Part shown: piece after piece, positions 6,561 through 23,459 of the stretch | Layout: each line of letters begins with the position of its first letter | Position numbering within the stretch: position 1 is the stretch's first letter | IMG/VR virus record: IMGVR_UViG_3300007171_000061 | Span: 1-64,000 of that record | Source: a virus | Lineage: Duplodnaviria > Caudoviricetes | DNA length: 64,000 bases | Reading direction: 5' to 3' (one strand) | Program-made: the position numbers and the translations under genes | Notes under the pieces: model-generated | Told to the model about the DNA's origin: nothing | The model's database searches: none | Seen by the model: only the letters and a program-made list of their open reading frames with translations

Positions 6561-6998
6561 TCAAAAATGTCTATGTAATGTCAGATGGCAACTACCACAA
6601 AGCCAAGTAACACATAGAAACATGTCTTCTGAATATGATGAATGATGCGCGTGTGGTTTACAAAGTTTACCACAAAATTCACAAACATTCGGTCTAAACA
6701 ATTTTCTATCTCTAACAGCATTATTAACTGCCGAGTTAGCTCTCTTCTTGTTAGGGAAAAGTTTATCTCTTTCTAATTGATAAGAACTTCTTCGCTCTTT
6801 GTCTGGTTTCTTGAGATATTTTTGTTTATCATACTGTACGTAATATTCGATATTTGACCTTCGATTTTTACGAACATCTTTCTTACTGCATTCTTTACAC
6901 TTATTTAAGTGACCATCCAACATTCTCGGATGTTTATAAAATGCAGAGAGTTCTTTATTCTCTCCGCACTTAAAACAACATTTGTGTTTTCCTGACAT
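6561..6998 (-). CDS. HNH homing endonuclease
   Basis: N-terminal CxxC...CxxC Zn module; CEFCG...HAHH...WLCGSCH HNH core. Confidence 0.8.
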   Translation of the reverse strand: MSGKHKCCFKCGENKELSAFYKHPRMLDGHLNKCKECSKKDVRKNRRSNIEYYVQYDKQKYLKKPDKERRSSYQLERDKLFPNKKRANSAVNNAVRDRKLFRPNVCEFCGKLCKPHAHHSSYSEDMFLCVTWLCGSCHLTLHRHF

Positions 6999-7649
6999 TT
7001 AGAAAGGAACTTCCCCATCATCTTCATCGGCAGGTGTCTCAACCTTAGCACGAGCTTTTGGTTTAACTTCTGCTTTAACTTCAGTTTTAGCTTTTGGAGC
7101 TTCTGCTTCAGGCTCATCATCGAATTCGCTTCCGGGTTCGTATTCTGGACCTGATTCAGCTACATATTCGATCATTTCAGTGACTAGAACGTTCTTTAGA
7201 TACAACGATGCCGTACCATTAGTGCGCTCAAACTTGTCAATACTGATTGAACCGTAAGAACCATTCGCAGGTAGTTTGCTGTTAGTAACGTCAACTAGTG
7301 CTTTACCGACTTTCTCAAAGACCTTTGGCTTGTACAAGTCAGGAACAGGCTTACCAGTTTTACCTAGTTCTGTACTCTTGCGCAAAGTTACAACCCAAAT
7401 ATTCTTACCTGCATCTTCTGGAGGTGCTACTTTGTAGATACCTTCAAATTCAGTAGTCTTTACTTTCTTGACGGATGTTTGGGCATCAATACCTTTGGCA
7501 AACTCTTCGTACTCATCTACTACATCTTCATCTGTAATAGCTACTGAAGCTTTCCATTCATCTGGCTTTGCTGGCTCTCCGGGTTTAACATAAGCTTTTT
7601 GAGGCTTGTTTAGTGACACATAGAGAAGCATACCTGTTAGTTTTTGCAT
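6999..7649 (-). CDS. Single-stranded DNA-binding protein (T7 gp2.5-like)
   Basis: Position in replication module; acidic tail ending DEDDGEVPF. Confidence 0.7.
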   Translation of the reverse strand: MQKLTGMLLYVSLNKPQKAYVKPGEPAKPDEWKASVAITDEDVVDEYEEFAKGIDAQTSVKKVKTTEFEGIYKVAPPEDAGKNIWVVTLRKSTELGKTGKPVPDLYKPKVFEKVGKALVDVTNSKLPANGSYGSISIDKFERTNGTASLYLKNVLVTEMIEYVAESGPEYEPGSEFDDEPEAEAPKAKTEVKAEVKPKARAKVETPADEDDGEVPF

Positions 7650-7712
7650 AATATTTCCTTTCGACTATTAATAAAAGACTCTACTTGTAACGGAAGTAGT
7701 AACCGAAGTGCA

Positions 7713-7741
7713 ATTATAGCAAATTGCAAATGCTGTGTCAA
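7713..7741 (-). promoter_or_regulatory. sigma70-type promoter for the SSB operon
   Basis: TTGACA-17 nt-TATAAT on minus strand. Confidence 0.75.
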
Positions 7742-7759
7742 TAGTTTATTGACTTTATT

Positions 7760-7834
7760 TGGTGGGTCAGACTGGACTTGAACCAGCACTATCTCGATTA
7801 TGAGTCGAGGGCTTCACCTTTAAGCTACTGACCC
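7760..7834 (-). tRNA. tRNA-CAT, probably Ile2 (lysidine type); Met possible
   Basis: GGGTCAG/CTGACCC acceptor stem, CTCGA-CT CAT AA-TCGAG anticodon arm, GCTGGTTCAAGTCCAG T-arm, encoded CCA. Confidence 0.9.
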
Positions 7835-7872
7835 TTATGTATCATAAACAATACCTAAGATAACATTAGATA

Positions 7873-8247
7873 TCATTTATGATGCTTTTTCTTTTTAAAT
7901 ACAGTGATAGTTTTCTCTACAGGTTGTACCTCATAGAACTCATCATAGGTGGAACCATTGTAAGAAGCATACCAACCATCGAATTTAATGAATACAACTT
8001 GCATACCATCACTGAACGAATATACAGACCAGTAATCAGAACCTTGATCTTCACCACCGTAACGATCTACTTCTTTAAACGTAATCTTTTCATCTTTCAG
8101 TAGCTTGCGAAAAGCTTTTACTTCTGTATATTCCCAATCGTACTCTTTATCACCAATCTCGCAATTGAAAAACTCTCTGAGTACATCACTATCAGCTTCT
8201 GCAAGTAAAGCTACAATTTTATCATTAAGCATGTCATTTCCTTTCAA
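7873..8247 (-). CDS. Hypothetical protein, paralogue of 8244-8738
   Basis: C-terminal YASYNGSTYDEFYEVQPVEKTITVF. Confidence 0.7.
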   Translation of the reverse strand: MKGNDMLNDKIVALLAEADSDVLREFFNCEIGDKEYDWEYTEVKAFRKLLKDEKITFKEVDRYGGEDQGSDYWSVYSFSDGMQVVFIKFDGWYASYNGSTYDEFYEVQPVEKTITVFKKKKHHK

Positions 8248-8738
8248 GGGTTATAAGCATTAAACACTGTACAAGTAATTTCTTTTGGTTTTACAAAGTA
8301 GAAGTTACTGTACTCATTACCATTATACGATGAATATTGGCAATTGATCTGAACGTAACCAACAATTTCTTTATCTTCAAGTACAGCAAATACAGTATAC
8401 ACTGGATATTCGCTCAAGTCGTACTGATCAACAAGATTGTTAGTTGCACTTTGATTGTACAGTGAATTATCAAAAGTTGCTGAATCGTATTTAACGCTCA
8501 GATTAACTTCACGAAGTTCATCGTTAATTGAATGAACGATATCGTGTGGTTGATGCCCATTTAGTTGTTCAGTAATTTCATTTTCATGGTGTCTGATATA
8601 CTTTTGAAACGCATTGTGAAAACGCTTATTCCAAGGTAGTGCATTTTGAAGTTGCTTGATCTTCTCTGCAGCTTCTTTTTGAATCTGAGCGATCTGCTGC
8701 TCTACTGTCAGTTCTACTACAGCTTTAGTTCGTGCCAT
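8244..8738 (-). CDS. Hypothetical protein, paralogue of 7873-8247
   Basis: C-terminal YSSYNGNEYSNFYFVKPKEITCTVF. Confidence 0.7.
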   Translation of the reverse strand: MARTKAVVELTVEQQIAQIQKEAAEKIKQLQNALPWNKRFHNAFQKYIRHHENEITEQLNGHQPHDIVHSINDELREVNLSVKYDSATFDNSLYNQSATNNLVDQYDLSEYPVYTVFAVLEDKEIVGYVQINCQYSSYNGNEYSNFYFVKPKEITCTVFNAYNP

Positions 8739-9543
8739 GTTCTAGTTCCTTTCTGATGTTGTCAAACTTCATTGTATCACACAAATTGAAGATTTCAGGA
8801 TAATTATCTATCGCAAAATCTCTAAACCAACCACTGCACAATGTAGTGCATACTTTATCAAGTGCTTTTAAGTACGCATGTCGTGGTGCATAATTCCAGT
8901 TGCTTGGTACAAGAAAACGCTCAATTGCAATGACTTGTGCTTCTTCAGCTACGCATTTGATTTTATCATCTTTTGATAGCTTATCCCACAAATCTTTGTC
9001 ACACCATGCGCTACTTGCGTTGCGTTGAAGCTGAGTATACAACGGTTTGTCGTGATATGCAACAAGTTCGTGCAAATAATCATGATTGTATTTCTTCTCA
9101 ACGTAATCATCAAAGAACTCATCTACTGTTTTCTTCAAGCTAGGATGACCTTGTGGGTAAGCGGTCATAGTTAAAGCTGTGCGGTTTCGTAATACACGTT
9201 CATCAAACGCAGTAAATGCAGGACGATACCTTGCAAGATGCTTATGATAATGTGTAATGTGCTTTTGAAAGCTTAGATCACGCCACAGGTGACTGCGTTT
9301 GATAATCGCTAGTCCAATCGGATTAACGATGTATACACGTTGACCTGCAATCTCAATGAACTGCTCAGATGCATATCGTTCCATATCATAGTTACCTACC
9401 GTATTGAAATCATGCAATTCAATGCGCTTAGTTGCATCTTCAATTCCATGCAAACTAATAATGTCCCAATCAGTAGTAGGTTTGCACTTGAAGCTATCAC
9501 TCCAGTATTCCAATGCACGAGAACCAATCAGTAGGTTTTTCAT
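8725..9543 (-). CDS. Putative Pol-beta-superfamily nucleotidyltransferase-like phage protein
   Basis: N-terminal IGSRAL...DWDII (GS + DxD) motif; C-terminal FFDDYV...HDYLHE helical domain; strong TAAGGAG RBS. Confidence 0.6.
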   Translation of the reverse strand: MKNLLIGSRALEYWSDSFKCKPTTDWDIISLHGIEDATKRIELHDFNTVGNYDMERYASEQFIEIAGQRVYIVNPIGLAIIKRSHLWRDLSFQKHITHYHKHLARYRPAFTAFDERVLRNRTALTMTAYPQGHPSLKKTVDEFFDDYVEKKYNHDYLHELVAYHDKPLYTQLQRNASSAWCDKDLWDKLSKDDKIKCVAEEAQVIAIERFLVPSNWNYAPRHAYLKALDKVCTTLCSGWFRDFAIDNYPEIFNLCDTMKFDNIRKELEHGTN

Positions 9544-9554
9544 ATTACTCCTTA

Positions 9555-9673
9555 GTTATAGTTCAGTATATTCCGTATCTTAGTTCCTCGTCATGCTTTA
9601 GCTCACATGCGTCATAAAACCCAAATAGTAAACCCCGGACGTTTACCCAACCTGAAATATACTGAACTATAAC
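9555..9673 (-). ncRNA. Structured element closed by a perfect 18-bp inverted repeat
   Basis: gttatagttcagtatatt (9555-9572) is the reverse complement of aatatactgaactataac (9656-9673); internal GTAAAC/GTTTAC hairpin. Confidence 0.5.
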
Positions 9674-9676
9674 CTC

Positions 9677-9827
9677 TGGTCCCTAAACCAGCATTATAGT
9701 GTCTTGTTACACCCGGACGACAATCCTTGGGCCTTTGAAATCCGCAGTGTACCACGCCATCAGTACATCTGTTTTTAATGACGGGGCTTACACCCGCCTC
9801 GCTTGAAGTGTGCCGCTAACTCTAGGG
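9677..9827 (-). ncRNA. 151-nt tRNA-like RNA with acceptor stem and encoded CCA but non-tRNA body
   Basis: 5' CCCTAGA pairs with 3' TTTAGGG, followed by A-CCA; internal hairpins GGCGGG/CCCGTC, GTACTG/TGGTAC, GGTGT/ACACT. Confidence 0.5.
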
Positions 9828-9860
9828 ATATGAGCAACAGGCATAAGCGGGACTAAATTC

Positions 9861-9937
9861 TGGTGCGAGTGGAGGGATTCGAACCCCCGACCAATGGTGT
9901 AGAAGACCAGTGCTCTATCCAACTGAGCTACACTCGC
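9861..9937 (-). tRNA. tRNA-Arg(TCT)
   Basis: GCGAGTG/CACTCGC stem, TAGCTCAGTTGGATAGAGC D-arm, CT TCT AC loop, GGTTCGAATCC T-loop, CCA. Confidence 0.93.
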
Positions 9938-9946
9938 TTAACCTCA

Positions 9947-9976
9947 ATTATACATCAGTTTTCAACTCCAAGTCAA
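9947..9976 (-). promoter_or_regulatory. sigma70-type promoter driving tRNA-Arg, the ncRNAs and the NTase operon
   Basis: TTGACT-18-TATAAT on minus strand, about 10 nt upstream of the tRNA. Confidence 0.65.
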
Positions 9977-10496
9977 CATTTCGCAAAATATTTTCTTTGA
10001 TGTTTAACCTAGCCAGTTCGTTCAGATCAGATTGTGGCATAGACATGCTAGATCGTAGCATACCGTCTGCATCAAACTGCTGTAACGTCTGGTACTCTTT
10101 ATTATACTCGTATTTGTACTTCATGATCCACCTGCATCGTAATATTTCATCAAATAATTGTACACTGTTCTTGGTGCTACAGCAAAAATAACTTCAGGAG
10201 TATCATCGCAAAAAGCTTTGTTGGGTGATTTCCACCAGTTATCAACAAGTTTTTTACCAACTAGTGCAGTTAGCAAAGCATCACAGCGTTTGCGAAGCAT
10301 CTCAGATTCATTTGTCATAATTCCAACCTCCAACATCGTGTGTTTTAAACGTAGCTCTTGAAATGCTAATTACATGCTCAGGTAGAACTTTAGATGTACC
10401 AGCAAACCATTCATCTTCAAAGCAGCATTGCATCTGTGCTACATCGTGCTCATAAATTGCTTGGTATACCCACCAAGGTAGTGCTCCCCAACTCAT
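9948..10496 (-). CDS. Three small hypothetical ORFs (9948-10124, 10121-10336, 10308-10496)
   Basis: Overlapping stop/start junctions downstream of the DNA polymerase gene. Confidence 0.55.
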
Positions 10497-15225: not shown

Positions 15226-16245
15226 TTATTCATTTTTCAGTAACCAAGAATTTGAGATTGACTTAAAGCTACGATCATGCACAGTATTGCTCTTGAATAC
15301 AACACCTTCACGATTGCTACCATTTAGCAAAGATTTACCTTCTGCAAAATCCAAGATAGACTGAATACTTTGTTCTTTAATATCAGTAGATTCTGCAATA
15401 ATTGGTACATGTTTCAAACCAATACGTTCACACGCTGCTTTAAGCTGCACAGGCAAAATGTATTGCCCCGTATGAGTATTGTACATGTCGTACACATAGA
15501 AGTCAAGCTGTGTTTTGTACTGATTACCTTGGATGCCTTCACCAATCATTTCACCTTGAATAGCCATGCCCTTCATAAAATTGCGGCGCATAACATCTTC
15601 AATCTGAAACTTACGTGCTACTTTCCAGAATGAATTTGCTTCGTCTTCTTTCAGATCAAGATTGCGTGAGCATACGTGAAATACGTCTTCATCGTCAAGA
15701 TAGAAAGTGCAAGATGAACCATCAAGTTTTTCTGTAATAGACCAAGTGTCAAGCATGAGTTCATCGAACTGTTTACTTAAGTTTTGAATACGCTCTTGAT
15801 CAGTCTTTGGTACTAACGAAGGAAAATTGCCTCGTGCCATACCAGCGAGTTGAGCATTCATTGGGCGTTCCCACTTTAGGATGCCAAGATGTTCTGTAAG
15901 GTCCAATCCTTCCGCAACAAGATGACCAGCACCTTTGATTGTATCCTCTGGAATCGGCAGCAACAAACCTTGTGAGAGTTGACCACGTAGTTTTACTGTA
16001 CGTAGACGTTCACCTTTTACACCTTCAAATTCCCTTGGCTCTTTGCCTTTGGATAGGAATGGTGCTAATTCTGTTGGAATCCATGCATCAATTTCTACGT
16101 AACAAGCGAGTGAATCAACTTGAAATTCACCCTTCTTAACTACCACTTTCCAACCATCGACTACAGCTACTTCAATAGCGTCTGCACCTTCGATTGGTTC
16201 AATAGCTGCAATCTTACGAATCGTTGCTAATTTTCGTTCTGTCAT
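15226..16245 (-). CDS. RNA ligase (Rnl2 / DRB0094 family)
   Basis: N-terminal OB-like IEPIEGADAIE...; TEKLDGSS motif I, QGEMIG, REGVVFK, FKSIS. Confidence 0.85.
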   Translation of the reverse strand: MTERKLATIRKIAAIEPIEGADAIEVAVVDGWKVVVKKGEFQVDSLACYVEIDAWIPTELAPFLSKGKEPREFEGVKGERLRTVKLRGQLSQGLLLPIPEDTIKGAGHLVAEGLDLTEHLGILKWERPMNAQLAGMARGNFPSLVPKTDQERIQNLSKQFDELMLDTWSITEKLDGSSCTFYLDDEDVFHVCSRNLDLKEDEANSFWKVARKFQIEDVMRRNFMKGMAIQGEMIGEGIQGNQYKTQLDFYVYDMYNTHTGQYILPVQLKAACERIGLKHVPIIAESTDIKEQSIQSILDFAEGKSLLNGSNREGVVFKSNTVHDRSFKSISNSWLLKNE

Positions 16246-21392: not shown

Positions 21393-22076
21393 AAGGAAAT
21401 GATGTGACTAAAATTATTGCTGAACTTGAAACTAGGCTTGCAAATAAACGCAAAAAGTATGAGCAAGTTACAAAACTTGTAGAGTTACTACCAATGTTTA
21501 AAGATCGTATTATCAGCAATGAAATTACTGGTGATCGCTTTGAAGAGTTAGCTTCGCACTATAAGGGTGTGTACTTTGCATGGGGTATCAATCTAGGTGT
21601 AAACGAGCCTACAAATTATGAAGGTGAATATAAAGATCAACTGCATGTAAGTGTATACTGCAATTGCATCAGTATGTTTGGTGAAGACTTGTATAATTAC
21701 GCCAACAGGACAATGCACGAAGCAATGAAAGATGTACCAATGTTTCACAACGATGCTATGAACAGTACATTTTATTTTGAACCACATCAAGTTGAACATG
21801 GTTTAGATACCATTGTTGCGTGGTACAATGAAGTTAAAGCTAAAGGTGATGCAATCTTGAAGCAAAAACGCAAAGAAGAACTTGAGCGTCAACTTAAAGA
21901 ATTGGAGAATTGAAATGAGCAATCTATGGTTTAATATTCGTTTTGGAGCTAGGCATTTCCAACTTACAAATGACTGGAAGTTTTCATTCAGCGTTAACCC
22001 GCACTGGATTGAGAATAAACCTGAGAAATTCTTTGAGGTTTATTGTATGTTTGGTGTACAGGTTTATTCAGCATGA
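21377..22076 (+). CDS. Two hypothetical ORFs (21377-21913, 21915-22076)
   Basis: ORF track plus RBS-supported starts. Confidence 0.6.
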
Positions 22077-22582
22077 ACGAAAATATTAAAGCTGGCGCTG
22101 ATATCCATGCTGGTGATGGTGGATATAGCGAAGGTACAAAAGAAGGTTATGAAGCATTTGTTAAAGCTCGTAACGCATCTAGAGGTAAACCTACTTTGTA
22201 TCTAATCCGTGGTGTACCCGGAAGTGGTAAATCTACTTTTGCACAATCTCTATTAGATAGTCGTGTAGTACAACGTGTGTATGAAGCTGACGATTATTTC
22301 ATTCAAAATGGTGTATATCAGTTTGATCCCACACAACTTGAGCAAGCACACAATCAATGCAAACGTAATACTTGGCTGGCGCTGTATGAAGGTTTGTCAG
22401 TAGCTGTATCAAATACATCTTGTGCTGAATGGGAAGTTGAAACTTATGCTACAATTGCAAAAGAGACTGAAGCTAACTTCGTGAGTATCATCCTTGAAAA
22501 TCGTCACGGTGGTAAAAATATTCACGGTTGTCCTGATGTTAAAGTCGAACAGATGAAAAGGAAATTCCATGTTAAGCTATGA
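22073..22582 (+). CDS. P-loop kinase (Pnk 5'-kinase-like, AAA_33)
   Basis: LYLIRGVPGSGKSTFA, EADDYF, AVSNT, HGCP...VEQM. Confidence 0.85.
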   Translation: MNENIKAGADIHAGDGGYSEGTKEGYEAFVKARNASRGKPTLYLIRGVPGSGKSTFAQSLLDSRVVQRVYEADDYFIQNGVYQFDPTQLEQAHNQCKRNTWLALYEGLSVAVSNTSCAEWEVETYATIAKETEANFVSIILENRHGGKNIHGCPDVKVEQMKRKFHVKL

Positions 22583-23459
22583 TCAACAAATGCAACTAGT
22601 CAACCGTGGTCTTGCTACTCTTAAAAACGATGGTAAGTACACTACTTTCAAGTACGCTCGTAAGGCAATGTACGAATATCTATGGTATAAAGTACCTGAT
22701 CTACTCGAATGTAGAGGTCATGTATATTGCAATAGCACAAAAGAACTTGTACAAGCTGCTCCACGCAAAAGCTTCAATTATCTTGAGCGCAATTACTGGA
22801 AAGATATGCCTTTGGATACTCCAGTTGAAATGTATAAGAAAGTCAATGGTTTCATGGCTTGTGTTACTTTGCATAACGATGAAATTATTGTATCTACTAC
22901 GGGTACAACTACTAGTGATTATGCAAAGTGGGCTAAAGAATTAGTCCTTCAAAATTGGCATTATTACGACATGGTGATTGCACCTGATGTTACTACACTA
23001 TTTGAAGTTGTAGTACCACAAGACCCTCACATTGTGCAAGAGCGTGAAGGTTTGCATCTACTTGGTGTACGTGAGAAAGCAAACGGTAACTTTCATCCAA
23101 TGGGTGCTAATGCACGTTGTACACTAGAGCAAGCATTAGAAATCGCAAAGCATGACCGTGGTGAAGGCTTTATGATGTATGCTTTACAAGCTGATGGTAC
23201 TTACAATTACAACGAGTGCTGTAAACTAAAGACTGATTACTACATTGGTAAAAAGAAGTTAATGTGTATGACAGCAAAGAACATTGAAATAATGTATAAA
23301 GATGTGCATCACTTTAAATCTGAGTTATCTAAAATGTGGTACACTGCTGCAAAATTCATTGTGAAAGATTTCAATAAAGATGCTTGGTTAAATTCTACAG
23401 ATCAAGAACGTAGACTAATCCTTGATAACTTTAGATGGAATGAACATGCAGGGTCATAA
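22569..23459 (+). CDS. RNA ligase (T4 Rnl1-like)
   Basis: LECRG, APRKSFNY, YKKVNGFM motif I, LFEVV, GEGFM, KLKTDYY. Confidence 0.8.
   Translation: MLSYDQQMQLVNRGLATLKNDGKYTTFKYARKAMYEYLWYKVPDLLECRGHVYCNSTKELVQAAPRKSFNYLERNYWKDMPLDTPVEMYKKVNGFMACVTLHNDEIIVSTTGTTTSDYAKWAKELVLQNWHYYDMVIAPDVTTLFEVVVPQDPHIVQEREGLHLLGVREKANGNFHPMGANARCTLEQALEIAKHDRGEGFMMYALQADGTYNYNECCKLKTDYYIGKKKLMCMTAKNIEIMYKDVHHFKSELSKMWYTAAKFIVKDFNKDAWLNSTDQERRLILDNFRWNEHAGS

Follow-up and report, generated by a model that had tools for sequence, protein, structure and literature searches.

The question raised by positions 7,760 to 9,976 of the stretch of phage DNA studied here is whether a structured RNA and an enzyme gene that lie side by side on its minus strand form a single system. 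The stretch, referred to below as the window, is 64,000 nucleotides (nt) long and comprises the first 64 kb of a complete 78,356-bp record of a DC31-like (Limnohabitans) freshwater phage. The RNA consists of a core, R1, and an adjoining long hairpin, P7 (9674-9555); the enzyme, a predicted nucleotidyltransferase encoded by open reading frame ORF272 (8725-9543), is followed by ORF164 and ORF124, two smaller genes whose products share a Y.SYNG motif. A preliminary description of the region had proposed that RNA and enzyme may make up one module, the RNA serving as substrate, decoy or regulator. The features themselves are real, but the integrated system is not supported by the distribution of its parts, as R1 and the gene each occur alone, and nothing was found that supports a link of the proposed kind. 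We favor instead, with a probability of roughly 0.65, a reading in which the region is one leftward unit carrying two separable things that are neighbors by backbone ancestry rather than parts of one obligate system. What is left standing is a new structured RNA family, which is well supported, beside a widespread uncharacterized viral nucleotidyltransferase-plus-partner module.

Relatives of the locus were collected from three sources: 37 loci fetched via the ORF272 protein, 53 stretches from two pattern scans of viral contigs and 34 stretches, 25 of them true, from one scan of metagenome contigs. A covariance model of R1, trained on 22 copies free of inserts, scores 204.9 bits in the window, where R1 (186 nt, 9857-9672, minus strand) is present as a single copy in the genome, and 72-206 bits in 75 phage and metagenome loci with one copy per locus. 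Three additional, weaker matches are all fragments truncated by a contig end.

In the DC31-like backbone the gene order is fixed (ORF58, tRNA-Arg, R1, ORF272, ORF164, ORF124, tRNA-Met, ORF216) and at almost every locus R1-P7 precedes the enzyme gene by 0-330 nt. This adjacency reflects the shared synteny of one backbone and therefore does not count as independent co-occurrence. R1 is found without the enzyme gene in other phage backbones, at loci L050, L054, L059, L125, L128 and L132. L050 has R1 together with ORF216, the enzyme cassette being absent; at L125 R1 stands behind a promoter of its own (TTGACG-17-TATAAT) and is followed by nine tRNA genes, and at L059 twelve tRNA genes follow it. 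L128, L132 and L050 have tRNA genes nearby and no ORF272 homologue. The enzyme gene, for its part, occurs without R1 at L014, L031, L033-L038 and L094 and in T4-like phages. At L014 and L031 the backbone is kept and tRNA-Arg abuts the enzyme gene, with no RNA in between. No matches to the R1 model were obtained for the enzyme loci of 38-52% identity (L033-L038, L094), nor for those of T4-like phages and Otagovirus. R1 was found only in or beside phage tRNA gene clusters, and its constant companion is the tRNA cluster, not the enzyme. Of the co-occurrence that had been anticipated, the part concerning the SYNG-motif genes is seen, as these do accompany the enzyme gene, while the pairing of RNA and enzyme does not extend beyond the shared DC31-like backbone. 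As a separate observation, ARAGORN calls a permuted transfer-messenger RNA (tmRNA) at L132 (846-1299, minus strand, tag ANDEVFALAA) about 300 nt downstream of R1; this call overlaps a tRNA-Ser call and may be a false positive or a phage-borne tmRNA.

The R1-P7 RNA

R1 has six hairpins; its two pseudoknots covary, and two of its loops are invariant and complementary to each other. The consensus starts with a conserved 5' UAGUCCCG, followed by P2, P3, an optional inserted hairpin, P4 and P5, after which come a second optional insert, the conserved AAGACACUAUAAU and P6. In the window, where all of these elements are on the minus strand, helix P1 is formed by 9849-9845 with 9804-9800, P2 carries the loop AUAUCCCUA at 9831-9823, P3 spans 9798-9780, P4, with one bulged A, spans 9771-9745, P5 spans 9726-9715 and P6 spans 9691-9676 with the loop UUUAGGGA at 9687-9680. 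Pseudoknot PK1 joins the P4 loop (9758-9756) to the strand between P4 and P5 (9732-9730), and PK2 (9722-9719 with 9703-9700) pairs GUC of the P5 loop with GAC of AAGACAC.

Among 50 sequences 95.0% of the cells in the proposed helices are standard pairs, as compared to 34-43% when the partners are slid, and compensatory changes are found in 27 of the 43 pairs versus a shuffled mean of 19.6. None of 500 shuffles reaches the observed values for pairing, compensatory change and covariation, and the top-ranked pairs from an unbiased mutual-information scan are those of the proposed helices. PK1 is present as GGC/GCC, GGU/ACC, UGC/GCA, AGU/ACU, AGC/GCU and GUC/GAC; in PK2 GUC/GAC becomes CUC/GAG in four sequences; and at least 11 different P6 stems carry the same unchanged loop. 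A change from A.G to G.A beside P5 also covaries, which suggests tandem sheared pairs next to this helix. Judged by this comparative record, R1 is a genuine structured RNA. The minimum-free-energy fold calculated from the single sequence fails to reproduce the comparative structure and, because of this mismatch, was set aside. The P2 loop UCCCUA is complementary to the P6 loop UAGGGA; as neither ever varies, pairing between the two loops can only be inferred.

It had been proposed that the region contains a 151-nt CCA-ended RNA, which corresponds to 9827-9677. A structured RNA is indeed present, with different boundaries: the conserved unit is the 186-nt R1, and the element as first drawn begins inside the P2 loop and ends inside P6. 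The supposed acceptor stem, CCCUAGA/UUUAGGG, connects one hairpin loop to another, and both hairpins have covarying stems of their own. The ACCA belongs to the 3' arm of P6, which reads AUAGG, ACUGG, ACAAG, GCAG or GUGG in relatives, and since this arm differs there is no conserved CCA end. A TATAAT within R1 was considered as a promoter and rejected; it lacks a -35 element at a spacing of 16-18 bp, is absent from the calls of the promoter scan and varies to TATAAA, TATTGA and TATGAA.

The 119-nt element closed by a long stem that had been noted downstream is confirmed as P7, with a length of about 120 nt and a stem of 20-21 bp rather than 18. The stem closes a three-way junction from which a GUAAAC/GUUUAC hairpin and a variable apical hairpin extend, and its 3' arm ends 1 nt before the AAGGAG ribosome-binding site of ORF272. 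Across 21 distinct copies 99.7% of the cells pair, although the regular expression used to collect the copies forced part of the apparent conservation of the arms. Every substitution in the long stem yields a G-U pair, all of them in the 3' arm, which argues for selection on the transcribed RNA strand rather than on a DNA palindrome, and compensatory changes are present in 5 of the 6 pairs of the inner hairpin. In relatives the upper part of P7 is replaced by different modules on the same UAUAGU/ACUAUA base, and two of these can stand in tandem. The L008 copy of R1 is 98% identical to that of the window, yet its P7 apex is different. Because an AUAGU...ACUAU hairpin follows even the divergent copies of R1 (L050, L053, L054 and L059), we take R1 and P7 to be parts of a single RNA, about 300 nt in length, whose apex varies.

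The apex appears to have been swapped as a cassette between near-identical phages (the window as compared to L008, L007, L006, L081 and others) and at least four unrelated apex modules are seen on the UAUAGU/ACUAUA base; the pattern suggests recombination at the base of the P7 stem. Small reading frames within the modules, such as a 24-codon Cys-rich frame in module R2b, were considered and rejected, the latter being broken by an indel in L030. P7 places a perfect 20-bp duplex directly in front of a ribosome-binding site, as might be expected of an RNase III site. Early T7 mRNA is processed at RNase III hairpins, and these resemble P7 in that a duplex of about 20 bp is placed between polycistronic units, immediately upstream of a ribosome-binding site. 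They differ in that P7 has a conserved three-way junction or other apical modules, and its cleavage is conjecture.

Searches against Rfam 15 at gathering thresholds gave only tRNAs over the 64-kb window, and at E<=10 nothing credible was found in 7500-10200, including for ROOL, GOLLD, T-box, RNase P, tmRNA and Y RNA. Taken together with the comparative data, it is well supported that R1-P7 represents a new RNA family of phage tRNA islands, one without an Rfam model.

ORF272 and its SYNG-family partners

The protein encoded at 8725-9543 (minus strand) has 272 residues and, as described earlier, a GS...DxD sequence. It consists of a Pol-beta-fold N-domain (approximately residues 1-130) and a helical C-domain, and matches Pfam families DUF7275 (1e-59, 202.1 bits, cut-off 27) and DUF7277 (5e-6, 27.5 bits, cut-off 27). 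The family is large and viral. It forms 1365 representative clusters at 50% identity, and tblastn places it in 692 phage records, approximately 260 of them named Escherichia phage and many T4-like, although a homologue in T4 itself was not found in this search of the phage records. Members also occur in giant viruses, and structural matches in BFVD are DUF7275 proteins of phages and giant viruses (E 1e-31 to 1e-8). A literature search gave no papers on DUF7275, DUF7277 or their accessions.

Conservation was evaluated in an alignment of 80 sequences, with counts referring to the homologues aligned at each position. The hG[GS] motif, L5-I6-G7-S8, has G7 in 76/76 and S8 in 76/77, and in the model it lies at the junction of strand 3-6 and helix 7-14; D25-W-D27-I on strand 26-30 is invariant (80/80); and the third acidic residue, within I41-E42-L43 on strand 41-45, is E or D in 75/78. 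Thus, of the catalytic Asp triad that had been expected, D25 and D27 stand and the third residue, E42, is not strictly Asp. By sequence, then, the complete Pol-beta triad signature (GS, D25xD27, E42) is present in ORF272.

The nucleotidyltransferase fold that had been anticipated is borne out by an AlphaFold2 model with a predicted local distance difference test score (pLDDT) of 96. The best matches of the N-domain in the Protein Data Bank (PDB) are MenT1 (Z 8.0 over 124 residues), MenT4 (7.0), TglT/MenT3 (6.7) and ANT(2'') (6.4). Nucleotidyltransferases account for 8 of the top 11 VIA matches (MenT1, MenT4, TglT, ANT(2''), 5uvd, 4ok0, 2ewr and LnuA, Z 8.0-4.7) and the antitoxin partners AbiEi (Z 6.8) and Rv2827c/MenA4 (Z 4.8) for two more; all ten span ORF272 from residue 1 to about 120-250. 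Foldseek ranks the same proteins first (probability 0.93-1.0, E 0.03-0.16), and the language-model neighbors of ORF272 in the protein atlas are clusters of AbiEii, DUF6036, DUF2204 and Aminoglyc_resit. No match was obtained with PADLOC and NCBIfam for ORF272, ORF164 or ORF124, and nothing from PDB sequence searches with ORF272 either alone or as a profile. K82-x-x-H85 might correspond to motif III of DUF1814, whose family profile includes C-terminal motifs III and IV that are unique to the family (PMC7450476). The likeness to DUF1814 is confined to the fold and to the language-model neighborhood. Because the AbiEii profile fails, ORF272 is filed as a MenT-like Pol-beta nucleotidyltransferase and not as a DUF1814 member; the model supports an assignment as a Pol-beta nucleotidyltransferase with a MenT-type fold. 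ORF272 resembles the MenT/AbiEii (DUF1814) toxins in its GS, DxD and third acidic residue and in having an adjacent small partner gene. It is unlike them in that it adds a C-terminal domain of its own (DUF7275), in which H, HD, H, EE and ER are invariant; its partner is downstream and unrelated to MenA/AbiEi, whereas that of MenT/AbiEii is upstream; and its family is one of phages and giant viruses rather than of chromosomal toxin-antitoxin pairs. An HD-phosphohydrolase reading of the C-domain (H...HD...H...EE) found only SAMHD1, at Z 3.5, in the fold search.

The two genes downstream are conserved partners of the enzyme gene, as had been suggested. ORF164 and ORF124 are paralogues (BLASTP E 4e-9, 33% identity over 76 residues spanning the Y.SYNG motif). 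All loci with available downstream sequence, down to approximately 38% identity, have one to three ORF124-type genes after the enzyme gene, and the order holds in the distant lineages (L033-L038, L094; 38-52% identity). ORF124 (7873-8232, minus strand; phrog_8206, 2.8e-14) most likely starts at ATG 8232, giving 119 residues, and not at TTG 8247. Its family has the invariant motifs YGGE..G..YW.VY.F and GxYxSYxG; the 145 homologues are nearly all labeled 'hypothetical protein' in the source records, and their Atlas clusters are more than 80% viral. The AlphaFold2 model (pLDDT 92) has three helices and a four-stranded sheet, for which a fold search found no convincing relative (best Z 5.0, to generic NTF2/cystatin-like alpha+beta rolls). 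Atlas leads to T4 Y04K (0.85) and Tad3 (0.83) fall below the reliable range, lack Pfam support and were rejected. ORF164 (8244-8738, minus strand), in which the SYNG domain is C-terminal to a helical region, matches phrog_8206 weakly and is present in most DC31-like loci. Among 150 representatives of the ORF272 family the domain fusions are to DUF7276 and to unassigned extensions only, with none to a SYNG domain. Some members have the three-domain architecture DUF7277-DUF7275-DUF7276 and others have extensions of 200-450 residues without a Pfam match; P0115 (675 residues) and giant-virus proteins in BFVD, those of Klosneuvirus-like viruses included, are examples.

Enzyme genes are found beside tRNA genes in other settings as well. 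At L094 the enzyme gene begins 15 nt after the end of a run of tRNA-Asn, tRNA-Glu and tRNA-Glu. The T4-like phages have their homologue among the e.2-e.4 genes beside nudE and the lysozyme gene e, as is always the case in Mosigvirus (L096), Karamvirus (L097) and Gaprivervirus (L099), and one neighbor in T4-like coliphage loci is annotated as similar to an open reading frame of the phage T5 tRNA region. Immediately after the tRNA-Arg/rnaD/rnaC block T4 has its e.6-e.8 genes, and the rest of the e region presumably continues on from there. The window also encodes, at 22043-23459 (plus strand), a P-loop kinase (AAA_33) that overlaps an Rnl1-type RNA ligase (RNA_lig_T4_1, 37.6 bits) and, at 15226-16245 (minus strand), a second RNA ligase (RNA_ligase plus PHA02142 OB domain). 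From their domain content the kinase and the two ligases make up a T4-style tRNA repair kit.

Possible functions of the two parts

R1-P7 would be co-transcribed with tRNA-Arg or, in other phages, produced from its own promoter. Its 5' end could be freed by processing of the tRNA 3' end, and on the 3' side the cut could be made either by host RNase III, in the 20-bp duplex of P7, or by RNase P, at the tRNA that follows. The core, locked by the two pseudoknots and by UCCCUA/UAGGGA pairing within or between molecules, may then be a stable, trans-acting RNA with a part in tRNA-related biology, the role presumed for T4 rnaC and rnaD and for ROOL and GOLLD.

The T4 locus that encodes rnaD (species 2, 119 nt) and rnaC (species 1, 139 nt) has a similar layout that begins with a homing endonuclease gene, which is segB in T4 and of the HNH type in DC31, L012 and L032, and continues with tRNA-Arg(UCU), two elements of the size of stable RNAs and small early genes. 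The T4 RNAs and R1-P7 are also alike in being co-transcribed with tRNA and in that the function is not known for either. With filters off, the best score of the R1 model over 69.5-74.5 kb of T4 is 5.8 bits, outside both rnaC and rnaD; the tRNA-like T-arm of rnaC and the CACCA end of rnaD have no conserved counterpart in R1. By these sequence comparisons R1 and rnaC/rnaD are analogous, not homologous. ROOL (RF03087) and GOLLD (RF01998) are likewise complex, pseudoknotted RNAs of phages and prophages, often near tRNA islands. Conserved loop-loop pairings in these RNAs, first read as tertiary contacts, join separate molecules to form RNA cages (bioRxiv 10.1101/2024.12.08.627333). R1 shares with them invariant complementary loops and relatives in lake metagenomes, but multimerization of R1 is pure conjecture, and it differs in size, ROOL being about 580 nt and GOLLD more than 800 nt as compared to about 300 nt for R1-P7, and shows no Rfam match at E<=10. 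Phage tRNA islands repeatedly harbor large structured RNAs of elusive function. T4 rnaC and rnaD were sequenced 50 years ago and the functions of such tRNA-island RNAs are still not known; R1-P7 is unusually tractable, being compact (about 300 nt) and clearly covarying, with three candidates for tertiary contacts and with a host and phage in culture (Limnohabitans sp. DCL3 and DC31).

ORF272 would add nucleotides to RNA 3' ends, most likely to the acceptor ends of tRNAs, with the SYNG proteins serving as regulator, inhibitor or specificity subunit. Acceptor ends are our leading guess for the substrate, and a tentative one. They are favored because the closest folds are those of enzymes that extend tRNA 3' ends, as MenT enzymes do (PMC7450476, PMC10435456), because the gene directly follows tRNA genes both here and in L094, where the tRNAs are different, and because the T4-like homologues are in the e region and the phage carries the kinase/ligase repair kit. 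If the guess is correct, ORF272 would bring a viral participant into the tRNA-centered arms race that involves anticodon nucleases, MenT/AbiE, tRNA repair and decoy tRNAs, from a family, DUF7275, that is widespread in viruses and has no assigned function.

A number of points count against these proposals, whose functional steps are all inference. The likeness to the MenT fold is moderate (Z 8.0 over 124 residues at a root-mean-square deviation of 4.0; Foldseek E 0.03), Z values of this size can reflect common arrangements, and PF08843 (AbiEii) gives no match to ORF272 at E<=1. Past the motif region H85, H154, H158, E200, E201, E208 and R209 are invariant, with D155 in 78/80, and these residues could mean another chemistry or another substrate. 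No SYNG partner or tRNA gene was detected within 3 kb of the homologues in T4-like phages and Otagovirus (25-29% identity). Large phages tend to carry tRNAs along with many accessory genes, so that the association of enzyme and tRNAs may be confounded. For the RNA, the kissing-loop pairing has wobble-level support only (U-A to U-G and G-U to A-U, in the L023 group), and the 5' GUCCC could pair instead with the same GGG.

ORF272 might instead act on a small molecule, in the manner of ANT(2'') or Lnu enzymes, or AMPylate a protein as MNT antitoxins do, in the role of an anti-defense enzyme. ANT(2'') and Lnu enzymes nucleotidylylate small molecules, and MNT antitoxins AMPylate HEPN toxins. We regard this as a somewhat unlikely but serious alternative to a tRNA substrate: ANT(2'') and LnuA (Z 4.7) are among the fold matches, Aminoglyc_resit clusters are near in the atlas, the large invariant C-domain has no MenT counterpart, and there is no tRNA within 3 kb of homologues in T4-like phages and giant viruses. 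Weighing on the other side are the three tRNA-modifying MenT toxins within the top four structural matches, the repeated placement of the gene beside tRNA genes in three phage lineages and the tRNA repair kit of the phage.

That R1-P7 is a cis-acting leader, either a riboswitch-like sensor or a processive antitermination element like the HK022 put RNA that would take RNA polymerase across untranslated tRNA arrays, is unlikely. The complex pseudoknotted fold and the invariant junction nucleotides would suit such a role, as would the placement directly after a promoter and ahead of 9-12 tRNAs in L125 and L059 and the end of R1-P7 just before the ribosome-binding site in the window. That site is, however, outside any conserved pairing, with no terminator or alternative hairpin; what lies downstream varies by locus (the enzyme gene, a membrane-protein open reading frame, tRNAs or other RNAs); R1 comes after tRNAs in the window and L128; and the P7 apex is freely swapped. 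Rather improbable, too, is the more ambitious version of the trans-acting proposal, in which R1-P7 is a new tRNA-island RNA that multimerizes via its invariant loops as a small cousin of ROOL and GOLLD, or acts on tRNA metabolism or tRNA-targeting defenses, while ORF272 and the SYNG proteins constitute a widespread viral counterpart of MenT that disables host tRNAs or mends or masks those of the phage. Were it true, the phage would have a three-part kit for tRNA warfare, consisting of tRNAs plus RNA, an end-modifying enzyme and a kinase-ligase repair pair.

We consider it quite improbable that RNA, enzyme and SYNG proteins are one system, with the RNA as substrate, decoy or RNA-type antitoxin of the enzyme. 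Their closeness in the DC31-like loci and their plausible co-transcription fit such a system, and MenT-type enzymes do act on the 3' ends of structured RNAs (PMC7450476, PMC10435456). Against it, R1 is without the gene in at least 6 other contexts and the gene without R1 in at least 10, the RNA has been lost and the gene kept in L014 and L031, tRNA genes or open reading frames intervene between the two in several loci and the CCA end is not conserved. Separating RNA from enzyme averts a wrong label of 'RNA-guided or RNA-antitoxin system' in annotation. Highly improbable is a role of the 20-bp inverted repeat at the level of DNA, whether it bounds a miniature mobile element, forms a cruciform or is a palindrome to which a protein binds. 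The nucleotide sequence of the arms is conserved between loci with protein genes of only about 60% identity, and the interior is exchanged as a cassette (modules R2a, R2b and R2c) that stands in tandem in L005 and L013, but what is G-U on the transcribed strand would turn into an A-C mismatch in the opposite strand and in a DNA cruciform, the interior hairpin covaries and part of the arm conservation is a result of the collecting pattern. Finally, the reading as a molecule that resembles tRNA or tmRNA, complete with acceptor stem, discriminator and CCA, for which the CCCUAGA/UUUAGGG pairing followed by ACCA in the window and a weak Rfam permuted-tmRNA match (14 bits, E 5.5) that overlaps the T-arm of tRNA-Arg might be cited, already fails on the comparative data and has a negligible chance of being correct, as ACCAG pairs with CUGGU in P6 and varies in relatives (AUAGG, ACUGG, ACAAG or GUGG), neither ARAGORN nor the Rfam models for tRNA, tmRNA and tRNA-like RNAs match it, and there is neither a T-loop consensus nor a tag reading frame.

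The transcription unit and its surroundings

The only close cultured relative of the window phage is Limnohabitans phage DC31, with 89% DNA identity across the region. DC31 is a long-tailed lake phage of 76 kb, and the paper reporting its genome does not mention the cassette genes and RNAs (PMC12195039). The cassette is on the minus strand, flanked by a DNA polymerase gene and a gene for a protein like the single-stranded DNA-binding proteins. A sigma-70-type promoter, TTGACT-18-TATAAT at 9976-9947, with 11 of 12 consensus positions, would drive the unit and is kept just upstream of tRNA-Arg in DC31 and in IMG/VR relatives. The unit has no minus-strand terminator before the next promoter, TTGACA-17-TATAAT at 7741-7713 (12 of 12 positions), from which the ORF216 unit starts, so that a single leftward transcript, as originally suggested, is plausible. 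The bracketing tRNA genes are also confirmed, both on the minus strand and called by ARAGORN and Rfam: tRNA-Arg(UCU) at 9937-9861 (70.5 bits) and, closing the unit, a tRNA(CAU) called as tRNA-Met at 7834-7760 (66.9 bits). Between tRNA-Arg and ORF272 there are 317 nt without genes (9860-9544), occupied by R1, P7 and the Shine-Dalgarno sequence AAGGAG, which was read from the sequence at 9553-9548. The start of ORF164 overlaps the end of ORF272 by 14 nt and translational coupling is therefore plausible.

The window contains five phage tRNAs at the Rfam gathering thresholds, and all five calls extend three bases past the end of the Rfam model. For tRNA-Arg and tRNA(CAU) these bases read CCA, and with CCA encoded in the tRNA genes plain CCA addition looks unnecessary.

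ORF216 (6999-7649, minus strand), directly after the cassette and kept in all relatives, has no Pfam or PHROG match; its acidic ...ADEDDGEVPF tail resembles the C-terminal tip of bacterial and phage single-stranded DNA-binding proteins. ORF145 (6561-6998, minus strand), also without a Pfam match, has many CxxC and HH motifs and is HNH/zinc-finger-like. At the corresponding position DC31 has a 180-nt gene only, and ORF145 may be a mobile endonuclease.

HNH endonuclease genes are found at the tRNA-Arg site, upstream of R1, in DC31 (L001, 5784-6148), L012 and L032. In DC31 the first 10 nt of tRNA-Arg are duplicated, with the HNH gene between both copies; in the downstream tRNA-Arg(UCU) copy, which ARAGORN misses, a normal D arm is lacking but the acceptor, anticodon and T arms are retained. 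In L012 the tRNA has been lost. We liken the siting of these HNH genes to that of segB beside tRNA-Arg in T4. Finally, tRNA-sized genes are located between tRNA-Arg and the enzyme gene in L005, L009, L016, L019-L021, L024, L027, L030, L032, L081 and L084. In these genes an acceptor stem of 7 bp, a T arm and a CCA in the coding sequence are combined with aberrant or expanded D or anticodon regions; one has a 6-bp stem and a 20-nt loop in place of the anticodon arm, and none is called by ARAGORN. They could be intron-bearing tRNAs, decoys or degenerate tRNAs.

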